Source of the DNA: an uncultured Planctomycetia bacterium
Lineage (GTDB): Bacteria > 4484-113 > JAGGVC01
Reading direction: 5' to 3'
DNA: 64,000 nucleotides
Assembly: GCA_964388445.1 (NCBI GenBank)
Contig: CAYMAI010000001.1
Location: forward strand, 336,215-400,214
A program made the position numbers and the translations under genes. The notes beneath the pieces were generated by a model. That model worked only from the letters and a program-made list of their open reading frames with translations. It did not search any database and had not been told where the DNA came from. This document shows positions 24,386 to 57,462 of the stretch, in pieces. Positions within the stretch are counted from its first letter, which is position 1. Every line of letters starts with the position of its first letter.

Positions 24386-24481
24386 CGGCGCATGGTAACA
24401 CGCGGCAACGCGCCCCGGCGGGATTATCCGCCGCCGGAGCGCCGAATGTTGCGCATCAGCCCTTCAAACTAGCGCGGCAAG

Positions 24482-25045
24482 TCAAGATTCTTCGGCGGGA
24501 AGAACGGTGATAGGTATTTCAAGCATTTTTGAGTGTGGAGGAGAAGGCTCTATCGGTTGAAATGGACTTATGACATGGCCTTCGTAGGTAACGCTAAATC
24601 CGCCCCATTCTAATGATTCAGCAGTAGTAATGCGGAGCAAGTAATTCCCGGCATTCAAAAGGGGAAGTGTGAATGATGCGGATTCGAGAACAGGGTTGTA
24701 GTCCTGTGTGAAGTACTTAGTAATCCAAGTACTTAAAGTTATGACTCCGCCCTCATTTAGTACAAATGCATTGTCGGTATCCGGCCTCAGGTATTTTAAA
24801 ACATCCGGGTTGAGCCTAGTAGAGAAATGCAAGACAATTTCTGCGTGTTCCCCTTCTTTAACTTGTTCAGGAACATCTACTGCAGTTATGTAGGGGAGAT
24901 AGGCAGTTATCTGGCTCTTTGGATTCGGCGGGGCTATGGCGGTCATCTTACATCCTGCAACCATTATTATTTGCATTAAGGCAGTTGCAAATAACAGCCC
25001 AAATGCGACTACAAATAACTTGCGAAACTCATGAAAGATTTTCAT
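24482..25045 (-). CDS. Lipoprotein of paralogous PITVLPxEES family (member L1)
   Basis: Lipobox (IIMVAGC), conserved YLPY and TAESLEWGG motifs, C-terminal PITVLPAEES; preceded by leader repeat copy. Confidence 0.6.
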   Translation of the reverse strand: MKIFHEFRKLFVVAFGLLFATALMQIIMVAGCKMTAIAPPNPKSQITAYLPYITAVDVPEQVKEGEHAEIVLHFSTRLNPDVLKYLRPDTDNAFVLNEGGVITLSTWITKYFTQDYNPVLESASFTLPLLNAGNYLLRITTAESLEWGGFSVTYEGHVISPFQPIEPSPPHSKMLEIPITVLPAEES

Positions 25046-25487
25046 ATTTCAACTCCTACCATGCGTTAATTGCTGAATAGTAATTTAAGAAACCCGCGAT
25101 GTCGCGCCGCGCAACGCGCATCATCGCCGCATTCGAGCGAATCATTAATAGACTTTCTCTACAAAAACTCTCTCCGTCCACATTCCCGCTCCGAACTTCC
25201 GGAATCCGATTTCCAAATTCGCAAACCCGCTTGTTTCCCAATTCGCAATCCAGTTTGGCGTTTTCCACGCTCCGGGTTTAAACAACGCTCCCGGTTTAAT
25301 AAGAAACACAATCTCCCGCTTCGCTTTGCATCTTGAATACACCTCAGAGTGCGCCACCGCATCCTTGGCGCACAACGGGATTTTACCCCGATTTGCAGGT
25401 TTTAAACCGGCATCAGGCTCGCGTAAATAATCACAATCCCAAGCCGCGGGAAAGCGGTGAAAATGGTGTATAAATCTGTATAATGCG
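25046..25487 (-). repeat. Conserved ~400 bp leader/promoter element, copy 1 of 3
   Basis: Near-identical to 33783..34228 and 56913..57352 from about 25106 (divergent nearer the L1 start); contains inverted repeat GTGCGCCA-N9-TGGCGCAC (25349..25373) and two pairs of direct repeats. Confidence 0.8.
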
Positions 25488-25565: not shown

Positions 25566-26846
25566 TTGCAATATCTTGAAGGATGTGAGATATTACGGAC
25601 CGTGACGCATGGTCATCAAACAAAAGGCAAGAGATACAAGCTTCGGACGCTGGCGCTTTACTACAGAAAAGGGGAAGTTGCCGTCGTCGAAAGCTGGCTG
25701 GTTGTAGGCCGGAAGGCTTACGAACTCTCAGCCGTGAGCAGGGAAAGCCTCGACGGCCTTCTTCCTCCGGCTTTTCGCGATGCCATTACGCTCGGCAATA
25801 TCCGGCAAGCCGTGTCGCGTGCCGAAAAAAGCGTCATTGCGGGTGACCGGGTTTACGCACCGGGAGTGAGGCCGGCGATATATTATTGCGGAAAGGAATT
25901 TATCATATCGGATTTGTTTTTCATCGACTCAGAACAGGCGATAAGTTCGTACGAGTTAACGGCGGTAAAACTTGAACGCCCGCACCTGATAACCGCAATA
26001 ACATCTGCCGCTCTATTACCGTTTTGGCACTATTACGGTTTCGATTACGTCGCCAAGTTTTTCGAATCGCGCTACGATATGTATTTAACCTATGTCGCGA
26101 TGCTGGTTCCCGCGATGTATTACTTTTTTCAAAGGCGCACGCTCAAAATAGAATTCGGAGGCCGGTTCGAGCACGTTTACGGCACTCACAAGCTCTCCGG
26201 GGGAGAATTGCCCGAAGTATGCAGCGCGATATCCGCGATGCTCGACAAAAGGCCGCACCTGGAAACGGTTGCCGCCGCGCCTTCGGCCAATGAATCCGCT
26301 AATGCGCTCGTCGGCGAAGGAAAAACGGGCGAAAGCGCTTCGGAGCGGGAATGGGAAAACGCAGACGGCGTTTATGACGAACAAGAAAGAATAAACTCGC
26401 ATATGCGAAAGCGAATGGCGCAAAAGTATTCGGCAATGCAGATGAAGGAGGACTCGCGCGGCTATTACGTGGATGAAAATGATGTGACGGTAACCGCGAA
26501 CAGAGCAAGGATATTCGGAGTCGAATTCCAAATCGACGACGTGGATTCGGTTGAAATTAGGCAAATGGGCTGCTTTGCAATGTTGGCTAATATTATTGGC
26601 ATAATCGCAATGCTCTACGTTTTAATTGATGGAAAAATTCCCGTACCAAAGCCATATAATATGATACTTATTGTTGCATCGCTTGGATATCTTATGTTAA
26701 TTCAATGGCTGTCGAATAAGCAAAAACTTATCGTATATTTCAAAGACGGGACGGTCGAATATTTTCATTCGAATCGCGGAAAGCAACTCGATAAGGCTCA
26801 TCAAGCGCTTTTCTTTTTAACGCTGGACGATGGAGGAGAGGGCTAA
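25566..26846 (+). CDS. Hypothetical membrane protein
   Basis: 426 aa, hydrophobic helices mid-protein and at C-terminus; 3' third noticeably AT-richer than background; non-ATG start in track, true start uncertain. Confidence 0.4.
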   Translation: MQYLEGCEILRTVTHGHQTKGKRYKLRTLALYYRKGEVAVVESWLVVGRKAYELSAVSRESLDGLLPPAFRDAITLGNIRQAVSRAEKSVIAGDRVYAPGVRPAIYYCGKEFIISDLFFIDSEQAISSYELTAVKLERPHLITAITSAALLPFWHYYGFDYVAKFFESRYDMYLTYVAMLVPAMYYFFQRRTLKIEFGGRFEHVYGTHKLSGGELPEVCSAISAMLDKRPHLETVAAAPSANESANALVGEGKTGESASEREWENADGVYDEQERINSHMRKRMAQKYSAMQMKEDSRGYYVDENDVTVTANRARIFGVEFQIDDVDSVEIRQMGCFAMLANIIGIIAMLYVLIDGKIPVPKPYNMILIVASLGYLMLIQWLSNKQKLIVYFKDGTVEYFHSNRGKQLDKAHQALFFLTLDDGGEG

Positions 26847-30477: not shown

Positions 30478-30673
30478 AGGGTTGACCCGCCGCAATTATA
30501 TCACGCGACGCCGCCACAACCGGAGCGCGATTGAAGGCCGATTCGGCTCCAGAACTTGGCCGGTTCGGCTGGCCGGAATACGCTTAAGGTATCAAGCGCC
30601 AAGAGCGCCCCGGCGGGAGAGGCCGCCGGAGCGCCGTAAACTGGGCGTCAACCCATCAATCTAGCGCGACGAG

Positions 30674-31279
30674 TCAGGAACCTTCGGGGGGGAGGACGGT
30701 GATGGGTATCAGTAAGTAAGTTGCATGTTCGTGATTTGGTCTAAGGCTAGAGCCTTGCCAATCTCCATTAATCGCTGGAATTCCATTGCCGTATTCATAC
30801 GAAACACCCAATCCGCCCCATTCGGCGGAATCCGCTGTCGGAATTTCCAGCATATACTCACCTTTCGCTAGTCCATCGATATAATACGAAACTGATGTCT
30901 TAGAAGGTTTCACAATGCCCACAACCCGAACCCAAGTGGTTAATCTGATAATCCCGGCGGAATTAGGTTTCAATGGCAAGGCACTTTCAAGGAAATACTC
31001 CTTAAGCGCGTCCGGAAATCTGTCTGCCGAAACTTCCAAATCAACCTTAAAAGCCTCTCCTTCGCGAATCTTATCTGGAATGGTTACCTCCTTGACGTAA
31101 GGTAAATATTCCGCAACACCAAAACCGCCGGGGGTGGCATAGCCGATTTTGCAGGAACTTGAAAAGCAAAAAACAGCAAATGCAAGGGTAAACACGGTAA
31201 TGGTCAAATGCCCGCAAGCGTCGGAGAAATTAGGTTTGTTGTTCATGTTCATTGCCTGTTTGTTACGTAAGTTAAACAT
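30674..31279 (-). CDS. Lipoprotein of PITVLPxEES family (member L2)
   Basis: Lipobox (FCFSSSC), EYLPYV, TADSAEWGG, C-terminal PITVLPPEGS; start may be an internal Met (31252 or 31246). Confidence 0.6.
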   Translation of the reverse strand: MFNLRNKQAMNMNNKPNFSDACGHLTITVFTLAFAVFCFSSSCKIGYATPGGFGVAEYLPYVKEVTIPDKIREGEAFKVDLEVSADRFPDALKEYFLESALPLKPNSAGIIRLTTWVRVVGIVKPSKTSVSYYIDGLAKGEYMLEIPTADSAEWGGLGVSYEYGNGIPAINGDWQGSSLRPNHEHATYLLIPITVLPPEGS

Positions 31280-31285
31280 TTCAGG

Positions 31286-31795
31286 TCAGGATTCTTCGGC
31301 GGGAAGAACGGTGATGGGGAATTCCAAAGTTGTCTCGTGCTCGTGTTTAGGCCTATCCCTACCATAAAATCCATAATACTTAATTTCGGTGCCCCCCCAT
31401 TCCTCTGAATCCGCAGTTGCAATTACAAGTATGTATGTACCTGCGCTTAGTGGCGGAATTGAAACCGAAATTGAAGATCGCAAAGGGGAACTTGCGAAAT
31501 CGAAAGGATCATATTGCATCCATGTGCTTACTAGAATCTTGTCTCCCGGCATATAAGTGTAATTTGCAGGATCGCTCTCGCCCGCCATAAAACCCCGAAG
31601 TGCATTGGGATTGCGCAATGCTGAGACTTGCAGTATGACATCAAATTCTTCATCTTCAAAAAGATATTCAGGGACAATTGCAGACTCCACAAATGGAAGA
31701 TATTCCCTATTCCAATTGGGAACAGGGCCTGCAATTCCGCGGTTACTGCACGAAGTCAATGTCAAGCTCATCAGACACAGCAAGACAAATCTCAT
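31286..31795 (-). CDS. Lipoprotein of PITVLPxEES family (member L3)
   Basis: Start set at internal ATG 31795 (MRFVLLCLMSLTLTSC, SD-like AAGGTGG upstream) rather than track start 31897, which would overlap the peptidase; EYLPFV, TADSEEWGG, PITVLPAEES. Confidence 0.6.
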   Translation of the reverse strand: MRFVLLCLMSLTLTSCSNRGIAGPVPNWNREYLPFVESAIVPEYLFEDEEFDVILQVSALRNPNALRGFMAGESDPANYTYMPGDKILVSTWMQYDPFDFASSPLRSSISVSIPPLSAGTYILVIATADSEEWGGTEIKYYGFYGRDRPKHEHETTLEFPITVLPAEES

Positions 31796-31853
31796 GTACA
31801 GCTTACCACCTTGTTGTTGAGCGTGTGGGTGTATGTTTCTCATTCCTAACCTC

Positions 31854-33782
31854 CTACCATCCATTGATTGCAGCGTAGTAATTTGCAATGCCAGCAATTG
31901 GCACTGCTCCGGTTTGATCCAAGTCCCGTCTGCGAGTATTTACTATTCTTGCTTGAACTTGGATATAGGTTGAGTCTGGGCGAATTCGGTACAAATGAAA
32001 TGCAAGCGATGAAACTTGTGGTGCACATGCGGATGTCCCATTAAAGTGATCGTAGCCGGAAAAAGGTATTGTTGATAAATGGCGACTTCCAGACATGAAA
32101 TCCATAAAGTCATATATTCCCGATACCGGATAGGTTGTGTAGTTATCGCTGAAATAGTTAGAACCGTTGCCGATTTCTCCCGTGTCCCACTGAGTTCCGT
32201 AAAAGTTTGTCCTAAGCCCACTCACGCCTAAAACGTTGTCATGCGCCGCGGGATATGTGCGCAAGTGCTTGCGCTCGTTTCCAGCGCTTGCAACATATAA
32301 CCGATCGTTTCGCCTTAGATCAAGCGATATTTCATCCTTCATGGTCTTCGGAGGATTCCAGTCCATGTACTTCCATCCTCCACCAAAACTCATATTGACT
32401 ACTCTTACCTTCTCTCTCCAATTGAGATGAGGCTGTCGTGGATCGTGATGAAATTCGAACCTTAGCGCTCTTATTGCTTTTAGCATCGAACCTGCAGTAA
32501 ACTTTTCCAAATATCCATCGACAATATTGTCAACCTTTAATCGTATGGGGAGAATTTTTGCATTTGGAGCCATGCTTGCAGTGCCGATGGAGTTGTTCGT
32601 AGCAGCCGAAATAATTCCCGCAACATTTGTACCATGTTTTGCCAGATTTCCGGTAACAGGATCGATAAATGTAGGCTCTCCCTTACCTTTGCCTACTTCA
32701 TAGGACTTATCCCAGCAGTCGACACCGATGTTGCTAATATGCCAATCTCGAACTCCTCCACCTTGAGTTGGACCGTTCAGATCTGGATGGTTTCTATAAA
32801 CCCCCGAATCAATGACCGCAACCATTTGGTCCGAAAAATTAGCGCTTCCTTGACCCCCTTCGGGCCCATAAGGTATTTGAGGAATCTGGTTCACGAAAAA
32901 GTGATTGATATAAAGCGCTTTGTTGCTGGTGTAATGCGTGTCGTTCGGAGGAGGATAATCTGCGGTATATTCGTCCATTGTATTTGGCTGAGCCTGTTCA
33001 ATCTTCTGATGAGTGCTGAAATATGCGTAAGCGAGGTCGAATGTAGAAAATCTTTCCTCAGTGAATCTAAACTGAAACCATGCGATTGAATTTCCCTCTT
33101 CTGGTTCTTCCGGCCCTTCAAACCAAGAAAAGATTACGTAAAGATCGTTAGCGGCAATGAAATTGCTAATTTCCTGCTCCGTCACTTCCTGCTTGAATAA
33201 CACAATCATCTCGTCTTCAGCGATTTCGAATTCCCCGCCAGCGGGTGCAGTCCAAATAATTGTCTCCGGTGATTCTTCATTATAGTTTGTAGTAAAAAAG
33301 TCCTGCAGAGGTTCGTTAGTTACCAGAATGTTTCCGTTGGGCAGTTGATACGTGCCTGTAAACGGATCGGGACTTGAGAGGCGGTTAACGGTAACAAATT
33401 GCCCCGGAGAAATCTCGACAACGCTTTGGGAGATTACAGGACCCCAGGGATTAATCTGGTCCAAATAAGGATCCAACAGCGATTGCGGATCACCGATAGG
33501 ACCTGCTATCTGCCTTTCCCAGCCTTCAGGCGGGTCGCCGCCGCTATCGAATGGCCCTTCGCCTCCGCCACCGGGATCGTTAGCAATTGCGGTTTGCCGA
33601 GTTTTCTCTGGGTCTTTGGAATCGGCACCATCCTGCGATTGCTGCGAATCGATTCTTGCCCCTGCGGTCATCTTGGCGTCCCTGTCACAAGACATCAGCG
33701 CAAAGGCGCACATCATTACAAGGGCGAGTAAAACTACCCCCCCCCCCCAGCCGGGGGCAAACGAAAACTTGGACTTTTTCAT
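31854..33782 (-). CDS. S8-family (subtilisin-like) serine peptidase, lipoprotein
   Basis: Catalytic triad motifs AVIDSGV, HGTNVAGII, GTSACAP; lipobox ALMSC; first ~40 aa and upstream leader nucleotide-identical to the peptidase at 55161..56912; 12-nt G run in signal-peptide codons. Confidence 0.85.
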   Translation of the reverse strand: MKKSKFSFAPGWGGGVVLLALVMMCAFALMSCDRDAKMTAGARIDSQQSQDGADSKDPEKTRQTAIANDPGGGGEGPFDSGGDPPEGWERQIAGPIGDPQSLLDPYLDQINPWGPVISQSVVEISPGQFVTVNRLSSPDPFTGTYQLPNGNILVTNEPLQDFFTTNYNEESPETIIWTAPAGGEFEIAEDEMIVLFKQEVTEQEISNFIAANDLYVIFSWFEGPEEPEEGNSIAWFQFRFTEERFSTFDLAYAYFSTHQKIEQAQPNTMDEYTADYPPPNDTHYTSNKALYINHFFVNQIPQIPYGPEGGQGSANFSDQMVAVIDSGVYRNHPDLNGPTQGGGVRDWHISNIGVDCWDKSYEVGKGKGEPTFIDPVTGNLAKHGTNVAGIISAATNNSIGTASMAPNAKILPIRLKVDNIVDGYLEKFTAGSMLKAIRALRFEFHHDPRQPHLNWREKVRVVNMSFGGGWKYMDWNPPKTMKDEISLDLRRNDRLYVASAGNERKHLRTYPAAHDNVLGVSGLRTNFYGTQWDTGEIGNGSNYFSDNYTTYPVSGIYDFMDFMSGSRHLSTIPFSGYDHFNGTSACAPQVSSLAFHLYRIRPDSTYIQVQARIVNTRRRDLDQTGAVPIAGIANYYAAINGW

Positions 33783-34228
33783 GTCCTACTCCTTTGGTTG
33801 AATTTTGAAATATCGCGTACGCTTGGGCGGGCGTTCTTACGCCGCGCCGCGCGCATCATCGCCGCTTTCGAGCGAATCCTTAATAGACCTTCTCTACCAA
33901 AACTCTCTCCGTCCACATTCCCGCTCCGAACTTCCGGAATCCGATTTCCAAATTCGCAAACCCGCTTGTTTCCCAATTCGCAATCCAGTTTGGCGTTTTC
34001 CACGCTCCGGGTTTAAACAACGCTCCCGGTTTAATAAGAAACACAATCTCCCGCTTCGCTTTGCATCTTGAATACACCTCAGAGTGCGCCACCGCATCCT
34101 TGGCGCACAACGGGATTTTACCCCGATTTGCAGGTTTTAAACCGGCATCAGGCTCGCGTAAATAATCACAATCCCAAGCCGCGGGAAAGCGGAGAAGCTT
34201 TTGTATAAATTTGTATAACCGGTCCGCG
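33783..34228 (-). repeat. Conserved leader/promoter element, copy 2 of 3
   Basis: Identical or near-identical to 56913..57352 and 25106..25487; identity continues into the peptidase coding region to about 33660. Confidence 0.85.
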
Positions 34229-34304: not shown

Positions 34305-35603
34305 TTACAGCCTGTCGGCTTCGGTTAAATCGGGCTTTCCGCCAAGGTAATTGCGAAGCGCGTCCGGCACGTCAACGCCGCCGTCCGGGCGCTGATAGTT
34401 TTCGAGAATCGCAGCGTACAGCCGCGGCAGCGCAAGCCCGCTTGCGTTCAGCGTATGCGCGAAAAACGGCTTGCCGGTGTTAGGGTCGCGATAGCGGATG
34501 TTCGCACGCCGCGCCTGATAGTCCTCGTAGTTGCTCGAACTCGACACTTCCTGCCAGCTGCCGTCGCTCGGCAGCCACACTTCGAGGTCGTAAGTTTTCG
34601 CGCTGCCGAAAGTCATATCGCCCGTCGGCAAAAGCGTGCGCCTGAACGGCAAATTCAGTTTTTTGAGAATCGCTTCGGCTTCGGCAGTCAGCCCTTCGTG
34701 ACGCTCGTAGCTTGCGACCGGCGTCGTGAAGTTGACTAGCTCTACCTTGTCGAATTGATGGACGCGAATAAGCCCGCGCACAGCCTTGCCATGGCTGCCC
34801 GCCTCGCGCCTGAAGCACGCGGTATACGCGCAAAATTTAATCGGCGTTTCGAGATTGTCGAGAATGGTGTCGCGATAGTAATTCGTGACCGGCACTTCGG
34901 CGGTGGGGATAAGATACATTTTCCCGTCTTCGAGTCCGTACATATCTTCCGCGAATTTCGGAAGCTGGCCCGTCCCTACCATCGAATCGGCAAGCACGAT
35001 GTATGGCGCGCTTAGCTGCACGTATCTGTGCTCCGTCTGATGAACGTCGAGCATGAATTGGATAATCGCCTGTTGAAGCCGTGCGCCCCAGCCGCGGAAG
35101 AAATAATAGCCGTGGCCGCTTACCCTGGCGCCGGCTTCGAAATCGATAAGCCCAAGGCGGCCCGAAATGTCGAGGTGGTCTTTGGGCTCGAAATCGAACG
35201 TACGCTTTTCGCCCCACTCAGAAACGATTTTTTTGTCGTCTTCGTTCAAGCCGTAGGGCACGGATGGGTGCGGAATGTTCGGGAATTCCAGCAAGAGCCG
35301 CTCTGTACGGTCGCGAAGTTCGGTAAGCTCGTCTTCCATCGCCTTGATGTGAAGCGAAAGCGTTTTCATCGCGTCGATGCGGGGGACGGCTTCCTGCCTT
35401 TTGCCGGCTTTCTGCAGCTCGCCGATTTCCTTCGATTCCTTGTTTCGCTGTTCCTGTAACTCGTTAAGCGTTTGCTGCGTTCGGCGCGCTTCCTCGTCAA
35501 TGGCGAGAAACTTGTCAACGAGTTTCGGAAAATCGTGTCCGCGCTTCGACAGCGCGTCCTTCGCCTCCGCCGGGTGCTCCCGAATGAACTTGCGGTCAAG
35601 CAT
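34305..35603 (-). CDS. serS: Seryl-tRNA synthetase
   Basis: 432 aa with N-terminal coiled-coil arm and class II aaRS core; clear SerRS-like sequence. Confidence 0.95.
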   Translation of the reverse strand: MLDRKFIREHPAEAKDALSKRGHDFPKLVDKFLAIDEEARRTQQTLNELQEQRNKESKEIGELQKAGKRQEAVPRIDAMKTLSLHIKAMEDELTELRDRTERLLLEFPNIPHPSVPYGLNEDDKKIVSEWGEKRTFDFEPKDHLDISGRLGLIDFEAGARVSGHGYYFFRGWGARLQQAIIQFMLDVHQTEHRYVQLSAPYIVLADSMVGTGQLPKFAEDMYGLEDGKMYLIPTAEVPVTNYYRDTILDNLETPIKFCAYTACFRREAGSHGKAVRGLIRVHQFDKVELVNFTTPVASYERHEGLTAEAEAILKKLNLPFRRTLLPTGDMTFGSAKTYDLEVWLPSDGSWQEVSSSSNYEDYQARRANIRYRDPNTGKPFFAHTLNASGLALPRLYAAILENYQRPDGGVDVPDALRNYLGGKPDLTEADRL

Positions 35604-37630: not shown

Positions 37631-38443
37631 TCAAACTAAAGCCTCGGCACTGCCGCCCCGGATTCTGCGCCTTACTTTGTCCCACGAATCCGTGATGAGA
37701 AAGCTTTCCCGCGCGTTTTCGACCATCCGCTCGAAAAGCGGAAACGGCACCGCGAAACTCAATACGCCTGCGGGAACGTACGGCCTGGCGGACACGTCGA
37801 ACATTCCCAAAACTGCCCGCGGCTTTTCGGATTCCAGTTCGCGCATCGGCCAGTAAACGATCGAACCGCAACCCGCAGCGAACGGAGCGATAACCGACTG
37901 CGGCGAGTCGTCTTCAAACCCCGACAAAGTGAAAAGTCCCGAAAGTACGTCCGGCGGCGAAAAGAAAATTACCACTTGCGGGTTGTCGGCTTCGGTCAGC
38001 GCGTCCCACCTTTTAAACACCGCATACTTCGCCGGAGCCGAAAACGGCTGCCATTTGTCGAGAAGGCTAATCACGGTTTCAGGCGAGTTTTTATACCTTT
38101 CGCCCTCCATCACGCCGCGTATGCCGCTCGACAAAAAATATTCAAAGCCTTCGCGCAACTCGCCCGTATATCCGAGATAGCGCATCGCCCCGCCGCACTT
38201 GATGTTTTCGCTGCCGAGCGCCAGCCGCTCGCCGCGCCTTACGCGCGCAAGCTCGGCGATTATGCAGCGCCATTCCTTGGCGGGCTCTGCGATTTCCGCG
38301 CCGAGAGTGTCCGCCGAGTATTCGAAAGTAATCGGCAAATCCGCGCAGGGAAAAAACTCGTCCCATACGGCGGCGAAACCTTCCAAAATTCTCTTTTCCA
38401 TAACGCCCTCCGCGACGTTTTTGTCGCACTTCAAGTTTACCAC
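37631..38443 (-). CDS. Hypothetical protein
   Basis: 270 aa, no TM segments or recognised catalytic motif. Confidence 0.45.
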   Translation of the reverse strand: MVNLKCDKNVAEGVMEKRILEGFAAVWDEFFPCADLPITFEYSADTLGAEIAEPAKEWRCIIAELARVRRGERLALGSENIKCGGAMRYLGYTGELREGFEYFLSSGIRGVMEGERYKNSPETVISLLDKWQPFSAPAKYAVFKRWDALTEADNPQVVIFFSPPDVLSGLFTLSGFEDDSPQSVIAPFAAGCGSIVYWPMRELESEKPRAVLGMFDVSARPYVPAGVLSFAVPFPLFERMVENARESFLITDSWDKVRRRIRGGSAEALV

Positions 38444-38529: not shown

Positions 38530-38962
38530 TCGTAATAGACTTGTAAAAAATCGCGAACAAAGTTAAAATGTATAAGTCTGTACAATCGGCGAAGAACATG
38601 CTGTATCTTCAGCGCTAGTGCAGCAGGCGAATGGCCCGCCCGGCCGCCATACCGGGCGATGCGGATGTACGAGTGGCCCGGGGTTGCCGCCGGAAGTTCG
38701 CAAAACCGGCAGCAGGCGGATTTTTCCGCCGGATCGCCGGCGGATAAGGCTCCGGCTCCGGCCGGAAGAGGGATGAGGCTTGCGCTGCCAGCCGACGGCG
38801 AAGCAGCGCGGTGGATTCCTAACTCAGTCATCACCGCATCCGGGCGGGAAAGCGTGACCTGCCCGGGTGCGGAATGAATGACGGGTTAAAGAAGCCGGTC
38901 CGCAAATCCAACCAGCGTACCCCGGCAAACGTCTTGGCATTAAAGCGCTTGGCATCGCTTGG

Positions 38963-42926: not shown

Positions 42927-44864
42927 TCAATACCCGCCGGAGTCCACGGCCTTCTGCACCTGCAGGAGCAGCTCGACGTTGCTCTTCGTTTTGATGAGCT
43001 TGCTGATGAGCCTGTTCATCCGCTCCGCCTCGTCCATTTCGGCAATCATCTTGCGAAGCTGCCACAGGCAATCCATTTCGTCGGGATTGTAAAGAAGCTC
43101 CTCGTGACGAGTGCCGCTCTTCAACAGGTCGATGGCTGGGAATATTCGCTTGTCCGCAAGCTCCCGCATAAGGTGGATTTCGCTGTTCGCCGTGCCTTTG
43201 AATTCTTCGTAAATGATGTCGTCGAGGCGCGAGCCGGTTTCGACGAGCGCGCTCGAAAGAATCGTCAGGCTTCCGCCGCCCTCGATGTTGCGCGCCGCGC
43301 CGAGAAAGCGCTTGGGTTTGTGCAGAGAGTTCGGGTCGAGACCGCCGGTCAGCGTCTTGCCGCTGGGCGGGCAGGTCAAGTTGTACGCGCGGGCGAGTCT
43401 GGTGAGGCTGTCGAGAAGTATCATCACGTCTTTGCCCTGTTCCACGCGGCGCTTGGCATATTCGATTGCAAGCTCCGCCGTTTGGATGTGGCTTTCCGGC
43501 TTTTCGTCGAACGTGGACGAAATGACGAGGCCTTGGATGTTGCGCTCGAAGTCGGTCACTTCTTCTGGGCGCTCGTCGATGAGTAGTGCGATAAGCTCGA
43601 TTTCGGGATGATTGCGCGCCACGGACGCCGCGATTTTCTTCAAAAGGACGGTTTTGCCGGCCTTGGGTTTCGCCACGATTATGCCGCGCTGGCCGCGCCC
43701 GATTGGCGAAAACAGGTCGAGAAGCCGGGTGCTGGTTTCGAACTGGTCGGTTTCGAGAAATATCCGCTGGTCGGGGTAAATCGGAACGAGCTTTTCGAAC
43801 GGCGTCGGGATACGGTAAGAGTCGGGATAGTGCCCGTTTATTTTGTCGATTTTGACGACGCTCTTATAGCGTTCCTGATCGCGCGGCGGCCTTATGGTGC
43901 CTACCACGACGTCGCCGGAACGAAGTCCGAATTTCTTGATTTGGCTGATGCTTACGTAAATGTCTTCTTCGCCGTAACGGAATTCCTTCTGGCGGATGAA
44001 CCCGTAAGTGCCGTCGGGATGTATATCCAGAACTCCCTTCTGAGCTTCTCCGTCGCCGGACGCCTGAGGTTGATAAGCGGTACGCTTAGCTTGTTGGACG
44101 CGCTGTTCGCTCTTGGGCGGTCTGCCGCGCCTCGGACGGTCGTCGCGCTGAGGTTCGTCCGCGGCGATTTCGTTGTCAATGTCGTCATATACCGGCGCAC
44201 GCTCGGGAGTTTTTTCCCGTGAGCCGAAGTCTTTGCTTACAGGCGGCTCGACGATTTCCTCTTCTTCCTCTTCGTACACTTCCGGTGTTCTGGCTCTGGC
44301 GGGACCGGCCTGGCGAACCGGCTCGGGCCTTTCTTCCTCTTCTTCCCGTTCTTCGCGCACGTATGCCGGCGGCTCGCGCTTTACAACGGGGCGAAGCGGC
44401 TCGCGCTGAACGGCAGGCGGCGAATACTCGCGGCGCGCCGCGGGACGCTGAGGTTCGGGCTCGATTTCGTCCACCCCACCATCCCGGAGTTCGAATTCGT
44501 CTTCGTATTCGTCCGGATCGGGCAAGGGAGCGGGCTTGGGGATCGGCGGCCGTTCGTACGGCTTGCGCGCGGGAACGAAGGAATCTCTGGTCGGCCCGGG
44601 GCGAGACCTTTCCTCCTCGCTCTTGGCATCTTGCACCGCTTCGATTTCCTTGGGCGCTGCGTGCGTTTTGGGCGCTCCCGGCGCACTCACGATGCTTACC
44701 GAAACCTTTCTGAAAAGCACGCGCTCGACGTCCATTATTTCGTCGATGATTTCGTTCTTTTTAAGCTTTCGGTAATTTTTGATTCCCCTTTCCTTGGCGA
44801 GATCGTAAAGATCGTTAAGGGTCATCGCCTCAAGCTCTTCAGCGCTTCTGGACCTGTTCGACAT
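42927..44864 (-). CDS. rho: Transcription termination factor Rho with long low-complexity N-terminal insertion
   Basis: 645 aa; Rho N-terminus (LNDLYDLAKERGIKNYRKLKKNEIIDEI), ~230 aa Arg/Glu/Pro-rich insertion, then RNA-binding and RecA-type ATPase core (Walker A GKTVLL). Confidence 0.95.
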   Translation of the reverse strand: MSNRSRSAEELEAMTLNDLYDLAKERGIKNYRKLKKNEIIDEIMDVERVLFRKVSVSIVSAPGAPKTHAAPKEIEAVQDAKSEEERSRPGPTRDSFVPARKPYERPPIPKPAPLPDPDEYEDEFELRDGGVDEIEPEPQRPAARREYSPPAVQREPLRPVVKREPPAYVREEREEEEERPEPVRQAGPARARTPEVYEEEEEEIVEPPVSKDFGSREKTPERAPVYDDIDNEIAADEPQRDDRPRRGRPPKSEQRVQQAKRTAYQPQASGDGEAQKGVLDIHPDGTYGFIRQKEFRYGEEDIYVSISQIKKFGLRSGDVVVGTIRPPRDQERYKSVVKIDKINGHYPDSYRIPTPFEKLVPIYPDQRIFLETDQFETSTRLLDLFSPIGRGQRGIIVAKPKAGKTVLLKKIAASVARNHPEIELIALLIDERPEEVTDFERNIQGLVISSTFDEKPESHIQTAELAIEYAKRRVEQGKDVMILLDSLTRLARAYNLTCPPSGKTLTGGLDPNSLHKPKRFLGAARNIEGGGSLTILSSALVETGSRLDDIIYEEFKGTANSEIHLMRELADKRIFPAIDLLKSGTRHEELLYNPDEMDCLWQLRKMIAEMDEAERMNRLISKLIKTKSNVELLLQVQKAVDSGGY

Positions 44865-52134: not shown

Positions 52135-53922
52135 TTAATTACGCAAATCGTATATCCAAATCGCGCCGTTCGCGATTACCTCGTCCGGCCGCGAATTCAG
52201 GAACGCGGCGGATAATTCATGCGCACGCGCCGATTGTTCGACGAATAAATTTACGTCGGTTATTTCGGAGTAACCGGTTGCAACCCAAAGACTAACCGCA
52301 TAGACGTTTCCCGGCTTGAAATCTCGGGGTAGGACGTCGTCCGGCGTTACTAGCGTTGCGTTTAGACCGTACACCGCCGGGTTGTCGCGCAAATTTCCGT
52401 AATACAACTTCACTCCTGCCACGCCGTTTTCGTCCATCCATTTTTTCAGCGCTGGCAGGCCCTGTCCCCAGTCCAAATTCGAGTCGCTAAGCAGATATGC
52501 CCGTCTTGCCGGCGATCCAGCGAATTCATTCATGTAACTTATCGGATATGGCATTTGACTAAGGCTCGACGTCGCCGCAAATAAAACCAAGGCCGCGCAA
52601 ACCGCCGTTCCGTACTTTTTCAACGCTGGAATGCGATCGAACCCCGTTAATGCGCCGGACGCGTAAACGAAAAGCAACGGATAAACGAACAGCAGGTGTC
52701 TTACTCCGAAATTCATACCGCTGAATATCGCGATGGCCGAGTAAATGAAAACGGGGATGAGCAGCGCAGTCTCGAAATCGCGGACCTTTGCCGGTTTGGC
52801 GAACGTAAGTGCCGCGCTCGACAAAATTAACAGCATAATCGCGATCGGAGTTTTGAAAAAAAATACCGCGGGAAAATAATGCCACCATCCGCGCAGGCTG
52901 AATTCGCCGAACAAATAAGCCGGATGTCCGAGTGATATGTGATGGAATACCTGATATATGCCCAGCATTGTTTCCTTTTGCACGGGTACTGCGGTAAGCG
53001 CTCCGGCAATCGCATCCTCGATAGGCGTGTCCCCAGGTATCGCGGAATCAATCCTTTCCTCGAATCGCGGCGAATTTTCGGGAGTGATTTTTTTCATCGT
53101 GAACGCGTAAGCCAAGGGAATAGCAAGCGCCAAAGCGGCGGCAACAAAAGCCAAGTAAAAAAGTATAAAACCGCAAAGAGCTCCGCATGGCGATTTGCCC
53201 GGTAACTTGATGCGAAAAATTCGAGTGGGAATTTTGAATGCTCCGCGCTTGAAAAGCCATGCGAAAATTGCAATAGAACAAAGCGGCACGGCAAGCCCGC
53301 TGAATTTTGTCAGCGCCGCTGCCGCGGTGAAAAACATCAGAAGCGAAAAGCTAAGCATCGAACCGGTTTTTGCGAAACGAATCGTGAAATACACGGACGC
53401 CAAAACCGCCGCTGCGATTGCCGCGTCGCTGTTCGCAAGCGCGGCGTGCGCGATAAGGTTCGGCTCGATGGCGAAAATCGCAATCGCAAGAGTGCCGGCC
53501 TTTGTGCCGTAAATTTCGCGCGCCGACAGGAACGCGAATACACTTGAAAGCGAGACCAAAATCAGCAGGGGCAGCCTCGCAGCGAACAGAATCCAAAGTT
53601 GATTTTTTTCGTTTACGCGCCAAAATTCCTCGGAAAACGCGATTTGATCCTTTGCGTTCCACGCGCCGCCGCCAATCGGCGATTTAACGCCCGCTGCCGC
53701 GAGCGGCATACCGATTAGCCATTTTGTGAGCGGAGGATGCTCGGTGTTCATTCTGAAGTCCCGAGCGCCATAATATGAAACTGCGGCGGGAATGTGCAAT
53801 GCCTCGTCGTTGGTAAGCCCGTTTTTGTGGGCAACCCAAGCGCCTTGAGCAAAAAATATCGCAATTAACAGCGCGATGGGTAGCCCCTGAATTCCGGTTG
53901 AAAAAAGGCGCTTCACGCACAA
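52135..53922 (-). CDS. GT-C membrane glycosyltransferase (PMT/ArnT-like, COG1807-type), paralog 1
   Basis: 595 aa polytopic protein; first extracytoplasmic loop with acidic DE motif (GLTNDEALHI), large C-terminal soluble domain; about 50-60% identical in aligned N-terminal blocks to 57463..59307. Confidence 0.8.
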   Translation of the reverse strand: MCVKRLFSTGIQGLPIALLIAIFFAQGAWVAHKNGLTNDEALHIPAAVSYYGARDFRMNTEHPPLTKWLIGMPLAAAGVKSPIGGGAWNAKDQIAFSEEFWRVNEKNQLWILFAARLPLLILVSLSSVFAFLSAREIYGTKAGTLAIAIFAIEPNLIAHAALANSDAAIAAAVLASVYFTIRFAKTGSMLSFSLLMFFTAAAALTKFSGLAVPLCSIAIFAWLFKRGAFKIPTRIFRIKLPGKSPCGALCGFILFYLAFVAAALALAIPLAYAFTMKKITPENSPRFEERIDSAIPGDTPIEDAIAGALTAVPVQKETMLGIYQVFHHISLGHPAYLFGEFSLRGWWHYFPAVFFFKTPIAIMLLILSSAALTFAKPAKVRDFETALLIPVFIYSAIAIFSGMNFGVRHLLFVYPLLFVYASGALTGFDRIPALKKYGTAVCAALVLFAATSSLSQMPYPISYMNEFAGSPARRAYLLSDSNLDWGQGLPALKKWMDENGVAGVKLYYGNLRDNPAVYGLNATLVTPDDVLPRDFKPGNVYAVSLWVATGYSEITDVNLFVEQSARAHELSAAFLNSRPDEVIANGAIWIYDLRN

Positions 53923-53980
53923 AGTTTACATCAAATTCGAAATTCGCGGCTAACAGGCGTGGATAAACCTCATTGCGCGC

Positions 53981-54075
53981 TAAGGCGCGAATATCCGAAT
54001 CGCGCCGTTCGCGATTACGCCGTCCGGCCGGCGCCCCGCGATGACCGCAAATCTCGCTTCGCGACCCCCGATTGG
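53981..54075 (-). other. Fragment homologous to the 3' end of the GT-C glycosyltransferase genes (gene remnant)
   Basis: About 90 nt near-identical to the last codons and stop region of 57463..59307 and 52135..53922 (CGCGAATATCC(G/A)AATCGCGCCGTTCGCGATTAC...), between lipoprotein L4 and GT-C paralog 1. Confidence 0.5.
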
Positions 54076-54157
54076 AACACGCGGCAACGCGCCCCGGCGG
54101 GAGAGGCCGCCGGAGTGCTGTAAATTGCGCATCAGCCCTTCAATTTAGCGTGACAGG

Positions 54158-54607
54158 TCAGGATTCTTCGGAGGGAAGAACGGTGATGGGGTATTGAAAT
54201 TGCCTGCTTCTCTCTTCGCCGTCCAAGTACACTACCTTTAGCTTGGGAAGATAGCTACCCGGCGACAAGTATGTTTTTTGTAATTGGTGCGAGTACAAGT
54301 GGTCTTCATATTTGCCTGAAATCGCGATTTCAACGTAACCGTTACCGTCGTCGAAGTCGATTTGAATGGATTTTACAAAGCCGGCGATGGATTGGTTGTT
54401 GCTAATCCAAAGGTCAAATTCGACCGAAAAAGGAGCGGTACCTTCATTCGATGTCAGCCTCTGAAACAAAACCCCTCTTGAAGGCCATAAGCCGTATTTA
54501 ATGCCGCTTCGGCCGTTGCAGCTGCTTAGCAAGCTGACTGCCGAAAAATCGGCGAGCATTATCGCCATCAGAAAAAAGCCTGAACAAACTTGATTTATGA
54601 ACTTCAT
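54158..54607 (-). CDS. Lipoprotein of PITVLPxEES family (divergent member L4)
   Basis: Lipobox (LLSSC), C-terminal YPITVLPSEES; 3' flank shares the conserved hairpin-containing sequence with L1 and L2. Confidence 0.5.
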   Translation of the reverse strand: MKFINQVCSGFFLMAIMLADFSAVSLLSSCNGRSGIKYGLWPSRGVLFQRLTSNEGTAPFSVEFDLWISNNQSIAGFVKSIQIDFDDGNGYVEIAISGKYEDHLYSHQLQKTYLSPGSYLPKLKVVYLDGEERSRQFQYPITVLPSEES

Positions 54608-54644: not shown

Positions 54645-55151
54645 CTACTCGACTGACACAACCGGATACGAATGGAATTGGATGCTGGTTTCGAATATTT
54701 CCCGGCCGTAGTAAACGCGCGAAATGATGTTGTAAACGCCGGGCGTCTCGAATGTGTAGGTAAGCAGCAGCGATTCGTCGAAATTCCTCGACCCGTAAAG
54801 TCCATCATATTTTGGCGATTTCAGGAATTTCAGCGCATCTTCTGTAACGTCAACTACCTCATCGCCGAAATTTACTTCAATCTTGTCCGGGTAAACGCGG
54901 CTTCGGTCAATCTCGCGATGAACTGGGCGCATCCAAACCCAATACTTGATCGAAAATGGGGCAGCGCCAGAGCTTTCCCCTTCTACGAAAACAATCGTAG
55001 ATACAGGTGGGTAAAAGTAGTATCCATCTTCCGGATACCCCCAGTCGTAACCGGGAAATTTGGACTTGTAATTTGTACTGGAGCAACCGGCAAAGATCGC
55101 AGTCAAAACAAGCACAACAAGCGCGGTGGAAAAAGTAAGTATCTTTATCAT
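54645..55151 (-). CDS. Small lipoprotein, distant relative of L4 (member L5)
   Basis: Lipobox (IFAGC); shares APFS...W block with L4; C-terminus YPVVSVE instead of PITVLPxEES; 10 bp downstream of peptidase 2. Confidence 0.5.
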   Translation of the reverse strand: MIKILTFSTALVVLVLTAIFAGCSSTNYKSKFPGYDWGYPEDGYYFYPPVSTIVFVEGESSGAAPFSIKYWVWMRPVHREIDRSRVYPDKIEVNFGDEVVDVTEDALKFLKSPKYDGLYGSRNFDESLLLTYTFETPGVYNIISRVYYGREIFETSIQFHSYPVVSVE

Positions 55152-55160
55152 ATCAACCTC

Positions 55161-56912
55161 CTAGGGACGTAATGTCTCGTACGCATTCAACTTCCAAGCG
55201 CCAAGATTGGGGTCGTAAGTGGCGCGCTGAAGAATCCGGTTCTTAGCGAGTTGTGGCGCTGAGTATTGGGGTCTCGTTACCAGCATCCCTGCTACAGCGC
55301 TCACATGTGGAGTGGCAGCGGACGTGCCGCTAAAAGCTGCGGTCAAGCCTTCCGGGTCACTTCGATAGCCAAGGTCGTACAAACCATTTGGGCTCTTTCC
55401 AACCATATCGACTGTCCAAATGAGCTGGTTTCCGGATCCTTCTCCACCTGGAGCAAATACGCTTCCCAATTTGCTGTATCCTGTCATTTGCCCAGATATC
55501 TTGTACGCACCTACAGACAATACTCTAGGATGTCTTGCAGGCCAATCTTCGGGCCATCTGGGTTCAGCGACTTCTTTGCGATTTCCTGCCGCGGCTACAA
55601 AAAGCATGTGTTGGGTGAGCTTGTCGAGAAAGCGCATATTCGTCTCACCTAAAGACGGTCCGCCGAAGCTACAATTTACAACCTCAATATTAGTATAAGG
55701 TACTTGCGGAACGAAAGGATAATACTCCCAATCCGCGCGGTAAATCCTCTTGACGCATCCTATAGCGAGGAATGAATTGGCTAAAGTAGAAGTTGAAAAA
55801 CCGCTATTGTGATACATTGCGATCGGCAGAATACGAGGACAACGAACAATTCCGCAAATATCCTGCTCGTCGTCTAACTGGTAGCCGGGGTCGTTATTGA
55901 TTGCGGATCCGATTATTCCAGCGACACAGGTACCATGACCCGCACTGCGAGCTGATACTGCACTAGCGTTTAACACACTTGGACTTGGCTGACCATGCCC
56001 TTGACCGAATGTTGTCCACCATTTGCTATCGTACGTGTTAACGCCCCATGAAAGAAATGCGGAACCTAGATCTTTATTGGCTTGCCTTCTCTGAACTCCA
56101 GTATCCAATATCGCAATTATGCCGGAATCGTAATAGTAATTCTTCCAAGCGTTCTGAATTCTAATGCTCTGTCCACTCGCATCGCGTATCGCCCATTGAA
56201 ACGGAAACAGATCGTCATCGGGCTCTGCGTCTATTGGCCATGCGCAGGTCGAAGCCAACGCATCCGGATCGACGGAATCGATTAAGTCGGGATATTCGTC
56301 CGGCCAATATTCGACTGCATACTCAATGCTTGTTCCTTGCGGCAACAGCGCGCCTATGCACTTTACCGCGTTCCACTCCACAAAGACTGCCAATTCTTCG
56401 GCAAGCACAAAATCGGCAACATCTTGATCCTCCGATACGGTGCTGTATGATGTTTGATGATAGTACTCATCCTCTGGGGATATTTCCTCATCGAAGTAGT
56501 TCGGGTCAACATCGGGATATTCCGGCGGGTTCTTGAACGCGATTATTACTCTTCCGTCGATTATAGGGTATGTCTCCTGGGTACGCGGATCGGTAAAGTC
56601 GCGAATGTCCCATTCGTCTTCTTCGTCGAATCCGCCGCCGCTTCCGCCCGGGCCGCCGTCCATCGGCTCTTCTCCGCCTCCGCCGAAATCTCCCGCGGAC
56701 GAGTTTCCGCGACTTTTGGTTGCGGATTGGCTTTCCGTAATGGCATCCTGGCCGGCTGCCGGTGTTGCTGGAATCAAACCGGTCGCATCCCCTGCGGTCA
56801 TCTTGGCGTCCCTGTCACAAGACATCAGCGCAAAGGCGCACATCATTACAAGGGCGAGTAAAACTACCCCCCCCCCCCAGCCGGGGGCAAACGAAAACTT
56901 GGACTTTTTCAT
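55161..56912 (-). CDS. S8-family (subtilisin-like) serine peptidase, lipoprotein, paralog 2
   Basis: Triad motifs IAILDTGV, HGTCVAGII, GTSAATPHVSAVAGML; N-terminal 40 aa and 5' leader identical to the peptidase at 31854..33782; same 12-nt G run. Confidence 0.85.
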   Translation of the reverse strand: MKKSKFSFAPGWGGGVVLLALVMMCAFALMSCDRDAKMTAGDATGLIPATPAAGQDAITESQSATKSRGNSSAGDFGGGGEEPMDGGPGGSGGGFDEEDEWDIRDFTDPRTQETYPIIDGRVIIAFKNPPEYPDVDPNYFDEEISPEDEYYHQTSYSTVSEDQDVADFVLAEELAVFVEWNAVKCIGALLPQGTSIEYAVEYWPDEYPDLIDSVDPDALASTCAWPIDAEPDDDLFPFQWAIRDASGQSIRIQNAWKNYYYDSGIIAILDTGVQRRQANKDLGSAFLSWGVNTYDSKWWTTFGQGHGQPSPSVLNASAVSARSAGHGTCVAGIIGSAINNDPGYQLDDEQDICGIVRCPRILPIAMYHNSGFSTSTLANSFLAIGCVKRIYRADWEYYPFVPQVPYTNIEVVNCSFGGPSLGETNMRFLDKLTQHMLFVAAAGNRKEVAEPRWPEDWPARHPRVLSVGAYKISGQMTGYSKLGSVFAPGGEGSGNQLIWTVDMVGKSPNGLYDLGYRSDPEGLTAAFSGTSAATPHVSAVAGMLVTRPQYSAPQLAKNRILQRATYDPNLGAWKLNAYETLRP

Positions 56913-57352
56913 GTCCTACTCCTTTGGTTGAATTTTGAAATATCGCGTACGCTTGGGCGGGCGTTCTTACGCCGCGCCGCGCGCATCATCGCCGCTTTCG
57001 AGCGAATCCTTAATAGACCTTCTCTACCAAAACTCTCTCCGTCCACATTCCCGCTCCGAACTTCCGGAATCCGATTTCCAAATTCGCAAACCCGCTTGTT
57101 TCCCAATTCGCAATCCAGTTTGGCGTTTTCCACGCTCCGGGTTTAAACAACGCTCCCGGTTTAATAAGAAACACAATCTCCCGCTTCGCTTTGCATCTTG
57201 AATACACCTAAGGCAGCGCCACCGCATCCTTGGCGCACAACGGAATTTTACCCCGATTTACAGGTTTTAAACCGGCTTCAGGCTCGCGTAAATAATCACA
57301 ATCCCAAGCCGCTGGAAATCAGTGAAAATTGTGTATAAATCTGTATAACGCG
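56913..57352 (-). repeat. Conserved leader/promoter element, copy 3 of 3
   Basis: Matches 33783..34228 and 25106..25487; identity extends into the peptidase coding region to about 56790. Confidence 0.85.
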
Positions 57353-57462
57353 GGAATGACGCCGCGAGAAATGCCTATTATCGCGAGGGGCAAGCACTTA
57401 ATTAGAATGCAGCCTCGCGGCTCGCGCATATAGGCATCGAGCTAACGTGTGCGAATGGCTCG

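Follow-up and report, generated by a model that had tools for sequence, protein, structure and literature searches.

Host-associated pathogens, Mycoplasma and Neisseria among them, are the textbook cases of homogenised 5′ modules that carry a repeat switch. The vsp genes of Mycoplasma bovis and the vpma genes of M. agalactiae encode lipoproteins whose mature parts are unrelated but whose signal peptides and 5′ untranslated regions (UTRs) are near-identical in sequence; they form clusters served by one promoter, and an Xer-type site-specific recombinase inverts DNA at a site within the 5′ UTR (PMC2268961). The opa genes of Neisseria occupy ∼11 dispersed loci and have CTCTT repeats in the signal-peptide coding region (PMC3745409), and the secreted sialidase NanH3 of Gardnerella shows poly-C phase variation (bioRxiv 10.1101/2020.09.16.300947). 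Here we describe an element of about 400 nt that precedes genes of secreted proteins in a 64-kb stretch of contig CAYMAI010000001.1 from an uncultured, metagenome-only bacterium, where the same logic appears to act on secreted subtilases and their partner lipoproteins. The whole stretch is called the window, and all coordinates without a contig label are window positions. We read the element as the common 5′ expression module of a small paralogous operon family (S8 subtilase lipoprotein and/or Ig-like lipoproteins). It would be a shared promoter module with a G-rich 5′ UTR of ∼330-380 nt; recombination would homogenise and shuffle the whole, and the S8 genes would also be gated by poly-G slippage. 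We put the probability of this reading at roughly 0.5.

As in vsp/vpma, paralogues at this locus have a 5′ UTR and signal peptide in common, a homopolymer tract comes with the module, and recombination appears to take place at the conserved 5′ region. Two of the three copies (B and C) combine a shared 5′ UTR and signal peptide with unrelated mature regions. Unlike in vsp/vpma, the copies are dispersed and directly oriented, with the full upstream module on each; the module comprises ∼400 nt plus 124 nt of coding sequence (CDS), and its products are S8 proteases and Ig-like lipoproteins instead of repetitive antigens. Neither a gene cluster with a single promoter nor a site-specific recombinase was found in the window, so we regard the element as an analogue, not a member, of the vsp/vpma system. 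As in opa and NanH3, the reading frame of a secreted or surface protein depends on a simple-sequence repeat in its signal-peptide codons or 5′ coding region, and as in opa the loci are dispersed with conserved, recombining 5′ ends. The 400-nt shared leader is present here only, and the length variation seen here is G12 versus G13 between assemblies. The closest known kind is the 5′-UTR-plus-signal-peptide module of vsp/vpma combined with a simple-sequence-repeat contingency switch. The element itself is lineage-specific; the kind of system is already known.

Leader copies and their probable recombination

A repeat search and a three-way alignment identified three copies of the element within the window, all on the minus strand and all sense to the downstream gene (Table 1). 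In-register identity over 392 nt (25096-25487 in copy A) is 95.2% between A and B, 94.4% between A and C, and 95.7% between B and C. Each copy abuts the start codon of a secreted-protein gene and has an AGGAG-type Shine-Dalgarno (SD) sequence before the ATG. The copies lie 9 and 23 kb apart in direct orientation. Similarity sets in abruptly at TTATACAGATTTATACA (25467-25483) in every variant, and the upstream flanks are mutually unrelated (a divergent membrane-protein gene at A, serS at B, and a PMT_2 gene at C). Copy A shares only the leader with B and C, not the CDS; its last ∼50 nt (25046-25095), which hold the SD GGTAGGAG, are unrelated to the other two. Between B and C, 421 nt (33659-34079) are 100% identical, a stretch that takes in the initial 124 nt of the CDS; beyond it, ungapped identity is 31%. 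The two peptidases, S8-B and S8-C, share their first 41 residues, comprising the signal peptide, the lipobox LMSC, and 10 more residues, yet overall they are 26% identical.

The first-pass annotation, made from the letters of the window, had described near-identical copies of a ∼400-bp leader before the lipoprotein gene L1 and both S8 peptidase genes, ending at the start codon with an AGGAG-type SD. These copies are real, and with all three in sense orientation at start codons its proposal of a shared, consistently oriented 5′ control region of S8-peptidase and lipoprotein operons holds up. Its account of the extent needed amending at the 3′ side: the common part is 392 nt, the final ∼50 nt of copy A do not belong to it, and the identity of B and C running into the signal-peptide codons with the poly-G tract had been missed. 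The internal repeats all lie where it had placed them, but one tandem unit has a period of 18, not 17.

Table 1. Features of the element and of the genes behind it (window positions)
Feature	Position	Strand	Remarks
Leader copy A	25046-25487	minus	5′ of lipoprotein L1 (24482-25045); part common to B and C, 25096-25487
Leader copy B	33783-34222	minus	between serS (34305-35603) and S8 peptidase B (31854-33782)
Leader copy C	56913-57352	minus	between PMT_2 glycosyltransferase gene (57463-59307) and S8 peptidase C (55161-56912)
5′ boundary motif TTATACA-N3-TTATACA	25467-25483	minus	7-bp direct repeat, 10-bp period; candidate activator site or upstream promoter element
Promoter candidate P1, extended -10 TGTGATTAT	25427-25435	minus	GATTTT (weakened) in L046; GCTTTT (lost) in L047 end
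Promoter candidate P2, TTTAAA-N15-TAAAAT	25380-25406 (B, 34115-34141; C, 57245-57271)	minus	9/12 to sigma-70 consensus
Hairpin/palindrome h2 GCCGGTTTAAAACCTGC	25396-25412	minus	outer pair G-C in A and B, G·U in C, A-U in L046
Hairpin h4 GTGCGCCA-N9-TGGCGCAC	25349-25373	minus	downstream of last promoter candidate
Variable GGA-rich centre	25205-25305	minus	both tandem repeat pairs; absent in L046 and L047 end, degenerate in L044 and L056
Tandem pair TTAAACCSGGAGCGT, two units	25267-25281, 25285-25299	minus	within centre; period 18
Tandem pair TTGCGAATTKGGAAA, two units	25210-25224, 25234-25248	minus	within centre
Block 2 (conserved 3′ block)	25105-25187	minus	GGGAATGTGGACGGAGAGAGTTTTKGTAGAG ... 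ATTCGCTCGAAWGCGGCGATGATGCGCG; kept in L046
Shared CDS start	33659-33782 (S8-B) = 56789-56912 (S8-C)	minus	100% identical; encodes MKKSKFSFAPGWGGGVVLLALVMMCAFALMSCDRDAKMTAG (signal peptide and lipobox)
G12 homopolymer, S8-B	33737-33748	minus	codons 12-16, in frame
G12 homopolymer, S8-C	56867-56878	minus	codons 12-16; orthologue in a related species (L058) also G12
Conserved 3′ module of operons	24413-24514, 30605-30706, 54089-54190	minus	last codons ...PITVLPxEES* and ∼90 nt

We compared five sequence versions of the element. Block 1 (the 5′ ∼195 nt) is the sole part common to all of them and is joined to different downstream segments and genes. In a Logan contig (L046) the flanking genes are ∼90% identical to those of the window and the leader is ∼75% identical, keeping the 5′ ∼130 nt and the 3′ block (GGGAAT.TG..CGGAGAGAGTTTTGGTAGAG ... 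TCGCTC....GCGGCG) without the ∼170-nt centre. In this related species an S8-B-type gene has lost most of its length, and its last ∼190 nt are joined to the leader (788-1331) near the codons of the catalytic-Ser motif; a B-type lipoprotein gene follows, and upstream of the cassette is the PMT_2 gene found before cassette C in the window. At the end of contig L047 (8541-8817), which is the A locus of a sister assembly, block 1 is kept with ∼20 substitutions and is followed by 75 unrelated nt, an SD, a different open reading frame (ORF) starting ATG GCG AAA CGG AGA AGA (MAKRRR...), and the contig end. Either leader and gene are combined here in a fourth way, or the contig end is chimeric. An A copy (L044) and a B copy (L056) from sister strains have a common 'type 2' centre with a degenerate second TTAAACC unit, and at 25113-25163 the sister-strain A copies are of the B/C type.

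Recent spread or concerted evolution had been suggested for the element. On the sequence evidence, concerted evolution or recombination is the best account of the near-identity of the leaders: proteins that are 26% identical have a leader and 41 codons that are 100% identical, and paralogous copies share patches in sister assemblies. The copy-specific differences are perfectly clustered in space (B-specific at 25486-25458, C-specific at 25456-25345, and A-specific at 25163-25099) and fall into 7 runs, a number as low as this being reached in 0 of 200,000 permutations. Gene conversion or cassette exchange via the 5′ and 3′ modules is suggested by the abrupt end of B/C identity, the clustered differences, the shared patches, and the finding of different cassettes next to one and the same neighbour gene. 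Such homologous recombination or gene conversion would keep the copies alike and swap them between gene bodies, and we propose that all three operons therefore answer to one regulatory input. All copy-specific differences lie within ∼140 nt of the unique flanks and independent short-read sister contigs break inside the element, so the 100% identical core could partly be assembly collapse; repeat collapse in metagenome assemblies may exaggerate the core identity and feed the mosaic. In practice, the repeat breaks short-read assemblies at these loci.

The same exchanges would take the leading part if the element were mainly a homology arm which, with the 3′ module, serves the exchange or conversion of whole cassettes among loci and strains, giving antigenic or functional variation, regulation being incidental. 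Conserved 5′ and 3′ modules indeed bracket divergent gene bodies, B/C identity stops abruptly after codon 41, 89-nt direct repeats surround cassette C, in L046 the same upstream gene is followed by another cassette and an S8 remnant is fused to the leader, and a different gene stands behind block 1 at the L047 end. However, a homology arm needs neither the sharp common 5′ boundary motif nor the conserved hairpins, no recombinase is nearby, and essential genes (rho, guaA, guaB, serS) lie between the directly oriented copies, so that reciprocal intragenomic exchange would delete them. As the principal role of the element we find this quite unlikely, and it is compatible with, not exclusive of, a shared promoter and UTR module.

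The element was found only in the present species group. A nhmmer profile of the variants found the three copies alone in the window, and in a metagenome scan a degenerate 5′-boundary pattern matched only loci B and C of a sister assembly, with no match in any other genome. The search with the shared 41-aa N-terminus gave no candidates; a protein identical to S8-C (P0014) was found. What the first-pass annotation had named as speaking against its proposal, a common insertion sequence or a remnant of a miniature inverted-repeat transposable element with no consistent orientation, was not observed. A non-coding ∼400-nt repeat in three copies within 32 kb might suggest such a selfish repeat, landed by chance upstream of genes, but we consider this extremely unlikely. 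All three copies are sense-oriented and abut start codons of a single operon family, the inverted-repeat scan of the copies and their flanks found no terminal inverted-repeat pair or target duplication common to them, and the internal ORFs match no Pfam family and are disrupted in variants. No match to the element turned up in plasmid, phage, or viral collections, and the boundary pattern is absent from the other genomes scanned. Features of an inverton of the fimS or Bacteroides type were not seen either, there being no flanking inverted repeats and no recombinase among the annotated ORFs of the window.

Promoter candidates and putative leader RNA

The organism uses SD sequences and canonical sigma-70 promoters, and the tRNA-Met promoter in the window is canonical (TTGACA-N17-TATACT). 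The arrangement that we favour, as an even call, is a promoter in block 1 followed by a 5′ UTR of 330-380 nt. P2, which is kept in all five variants, would be the best candidate promoter, with the extended -10 of P1 as the alternative, and the TTATACA repeat upstream may be the site of a shared activator. The rest of the element would be transcribed as a G-rich, C-poor 5′ UTR with h4 first, then the dispensable GGA-rich region, and the SD last. Among the variants, block 1 and the ATG are separated by distances that differ by ∼200 nt, which fits a promoter with a variable UTR better than a fixed-distance operator. The boundary motif is found also at 34202-34218 (with one mismatch) and at 57332-57348, and L046 has a 10-nt deletion just downstream of it that preserves the helical phase. 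If confirmed, this arrangement would offer a small promoter-and-leader module, specific to the lineage, from which its regulator could be traced.

Several points tell against this arrangement. The spacer of P2 is unusual (15 nt) and P1 is destroyed in one variant; a consensus scan found no minus-strand leader site of at least 9/12 with a 16-18-nt spacer, both P2 and P1 coming from a relaxed scan only, and the start of transcription in block 1 is something that we infer from the sequence. A fair sigma-70 match (GCGACA-N17-TACTAT) lies ∼60 nt before the ATG in copy A, and distant homologues (L059 and L060) have TATAAT ∼50 nt upstream of the S8 ATG and no long leader, which makes gene-proximal promoters plausible.

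These proximal sites would be the working promoters if the element were upstream regulatory DNA and not a transcribed leader, with protein-binding sites (the TTATACA repeats, palindromes, and tandem repeats) acting on promoters in the last 60 nt. B and C show a weak GATATT 27 nt upstream of their start codons, the 10-bp period of the direct repeat stays in phase through the L046 deletion, and a related motif stands before another gene at 38569-38585. The first-pass annotation had taken the tandem repeats for a possible operator array. TTGCGAATTKGGAAA occurs 6 times in the window versus 0.8 expected. The centre that carries both pairs is missing from L046 and the L047 end, and the second TTAAACC unit is degenerate in sister strains; the repeats are dispensable, which argues against an operator array. 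The variable distance between block 1 and the start codon, the strong G>C and GGA strand bias, and the absence of a regulator gene adjoining any of the three copies also count against protein-binding DNA, and the one-arm C-to-T (G·U) changes and the loop-length change in the hairpins suit RNA, not a symmetric operator. We therefore rate upstream DNA as an unlikely, though not negligible, explanation.

Some minor observations concern the same motifs. The site at 38569-38585 (TTGTACAGACTTATACA, minus strand) precedes a DUF169 gene (37631-38443) by ∼170 nt, and the same putative regulator might act there as well. The reverse complement of the boundary motif of copy A (25457-25484, plus strand) gives a 10/12 sigma-70 match, GTGAAA-N16-TATAAT, that faces the divergent gene 25566-26846; in B and C the corresponding plus-strand hexamer is TATAAC and no divergent gene follows. 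A TTATACA-like sequence upstream of the L060 S8 gene is part of a divergent rpsB promoter and was treated as a coincidence. Distant homologues have a conserved ACTCCTAYCATCGGGAGGAGGG segment (L059:5900-5960, L060:5210-5270), whose anti-SD might pair with the SD in a hairpin. No sigma-54 -24/-12 element was found by eye in the proximal regions. The pattern GCGAATTNGGAA...GCGAATTNGGAA from the tandem repeats matched 43 unrelated loci in a collection of genome contigs, all other repeat arrays without homology to the element.

RNA-level evidence for a promoter in block 1 with a long 5′ UTR comes from the hairpins h2 and h4. In L046, h4 reads GAGCGCTC-N10-GGGCGCT, with two compensatory pairs and one G·U; at the L047 end it reads GTGTGCCA (C-to-U, giving G·U), and in copy C it is cut to 6 bp. 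Together h4 and h2 show 2 double compensatory changes and 4 G·U substitutions, and 93% of cells pair versus at most 51% with slid partners; the covariation count rests on 4 variants, however, and in a shuffle control it was not significant (111/500). The G·U-type changes make sense only as RNA of the sense strand, since on the other strand they would be A·C mismatches. A structured 5′ UTR had been put forward in the first-pass annotation, and the conserved hairpins hint at one; the whole-leader fold is barely better than shuffles (z = -1.88), which, like the shuffle control, counsels caution. Nor does the leader belong to a known RNA family as far as Rfam 15 covers them: no covariance model matched in the whole window except tRNA-Met, and copy A, as well as copy B with its 5′ CDS, gave no match at E ≤ 10. 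A long-range helix CCGCUUUCCCGC/GCGGGAAUGUGG was predicted as well, but it has three uncompensated mismatches in copy C and was not relied on. Leader-encoded peptides were also considered and rejected (a 67-aa minus-strand ORF, an 88-aa plus-strand ORF, and a 12-aa ORF in block 2), being broken or deleted in the variants and without a Pfam match.

5′-terminal stem-loops stabilise long-lived exoprotein mRNAs, as in the Bacillus subtilis aprE leader and the Escherichia coli ompA 5′ UTR. In a transcript begun at P2, h4 would be the 5′-terminal stem-loop, placing a conserved hairpin at the very 5′ end of a subtilase mRNA as in aprE. Unlike the aprE and ompA leaders, the leader here is several times longer and has no sequence similarity to them, and its start site is a candidate only.

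The sense strand of the leader has 130 G and 83 C. GGA occurs 16 times versus 7-10 expected (p ∼ 0.016), and 11 of these occurrences fall in one 117-nt stretch in the non-conserved centre. Leaders controlled by CsrA/RsmA and CsrB-type sponges likewise have several GGA motifs in a purine-rich untranslated region, one of them in the SD; here, in contrast, the excess is modest (∼2-fold) and sits in the dispensable centre. Each copy might be a small-RNA gene in its own right that just happens to stand before an operon, such as a GGA-rich sponge of the CsrB/RsmZ kind acting on a CsrA-type protein; a GC-rich hairpin does close the shared part, followed in copy A by GGGTTTCTT. Yet in B and C no U-tract follows this hairpin and sequence identity runs on into the CDS, conservation is lowest in the GGA-rich centre, no CsrB/Rsm family of Rfam matched even at E ≤ 10, and no csrA gene was seen in the window. 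We regard a small-RNA gene as very improbable. As a side observation, the Rho protein encoded in the window (42927-44864) has 645 aa with a long insertion between its N-terminal and RNA-binding domains, which is relevant to the way in which a long untranslated leader poor in C might evade termination by Rho.

Poly-G tract in the S8 genes

The two G12 tracts in the shared signal-peptide codons are the only homopolymers of at least 10 nt in the 64 kb. In both S8 genes the 5′ part of the CDS thus contains a repeat whose length sets the frame, as at contingency loci. At the S8-B locus of a sister assembly (L047, 280-292) the tract is G13, and the gene is then called from M23. Homologues of 40-44% identity from two independent assemblies have G9 at the same place (L059:5963-5971; L060:5271-5279). 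In these the SD-linked frame runs into TAG, and only G8 or G11 restores a lipoprotein signal peptide. The G9 homologues, which come from other uncultured bacteria, keep the operon, with the S8 gene and two ∼210-aa lipoproteins distantly related to L1. Another homologue, of 42% identity, has (CT)6(AC)3 at the tract position (L061:∼2955-2980), and homologue P0016 has an in-frame GGG.

This pattern fits slipped-strand phase variation of the S8 genes. Changes in the length of the G12 tract would switch S8 expression on and off, as an additional layer upon the promoter and UTR that the three operons appear to share. A more trivial explanation weighs against this part of the reading, as the difference between G12 and G13 could be a homopolymer sequencing error. 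An out-of-frame G tract also makes gene callers truncate the protease genes. If phase variation is confirmed, contingency-locus strategies would extend to extracellular proteolysis in environmental or uncharacterised lineages.

Putting the parts together, one could imagine a portable cassette made up of a promoter, a new structured leader RNA, and a protease signal peptide with a poly-G switch, moved by recombination between unrelated gene bodies within and between strains. Cassette shuffling and slipped-strand ON/OFF switching would then vary the repertoire of secreted proteases and lipoproteins in an uncultured environmental lineage, and the repeat feature would be conserved in distant relatives as G9, G12, or (CT)n at the same codons. 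In this full form the proposal is doubtful, and we offer it as speculation.

Operons and neighbouring genes

In operon A the L1 gene stands behind leader A. In operon B the S8 peptidase gene is followed by two L1-family lipoprotein genes (31286-31897 and 30674-31279), and in operon C by two small lipoprotein genes (54645-55151 and 54158-54607). The operons end in the conserved 3′ module, whose three copies are 72-84% identical and contain a 12-bp GC-rich hairpin (GCGCTCCGGCGG/CCGCCGGGGCGC) with no U-tract. The window is otherwise ordinary chromosome, with xseA, rho, guaA, guaB, serS, ksgA, rqcH, and others.

The lipoproteins encoded at 24482-25045, 31286-31897, and 30674-31279 belong to no Pfam family. 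An AlphaFold model of L1 (predicted local distance difference test score, 73) shows an Ig/PKD-like beta-sandwich, for which only generic matches, and no significant ones, were found in the Protein Data Bank. Among 5.8 billion proteins the L1 family forms four clusters, all from the present species group. Distant relatives of the L1-type lipoproteins are always encoded directly after an S8 gene.

Cassette C with its leader is bracketed by two 89-nt direct repeats (85% identical, 53972-54060 and 57455-57543). One of them is the 3′ end of the PMT_2 gene upstream of leader C, and the other is a remnant upstream of a paralogous PMT_2 gene (52135-53922). The repeats suggest that cassette C was inserted or duplicated within the PMT_2 array.

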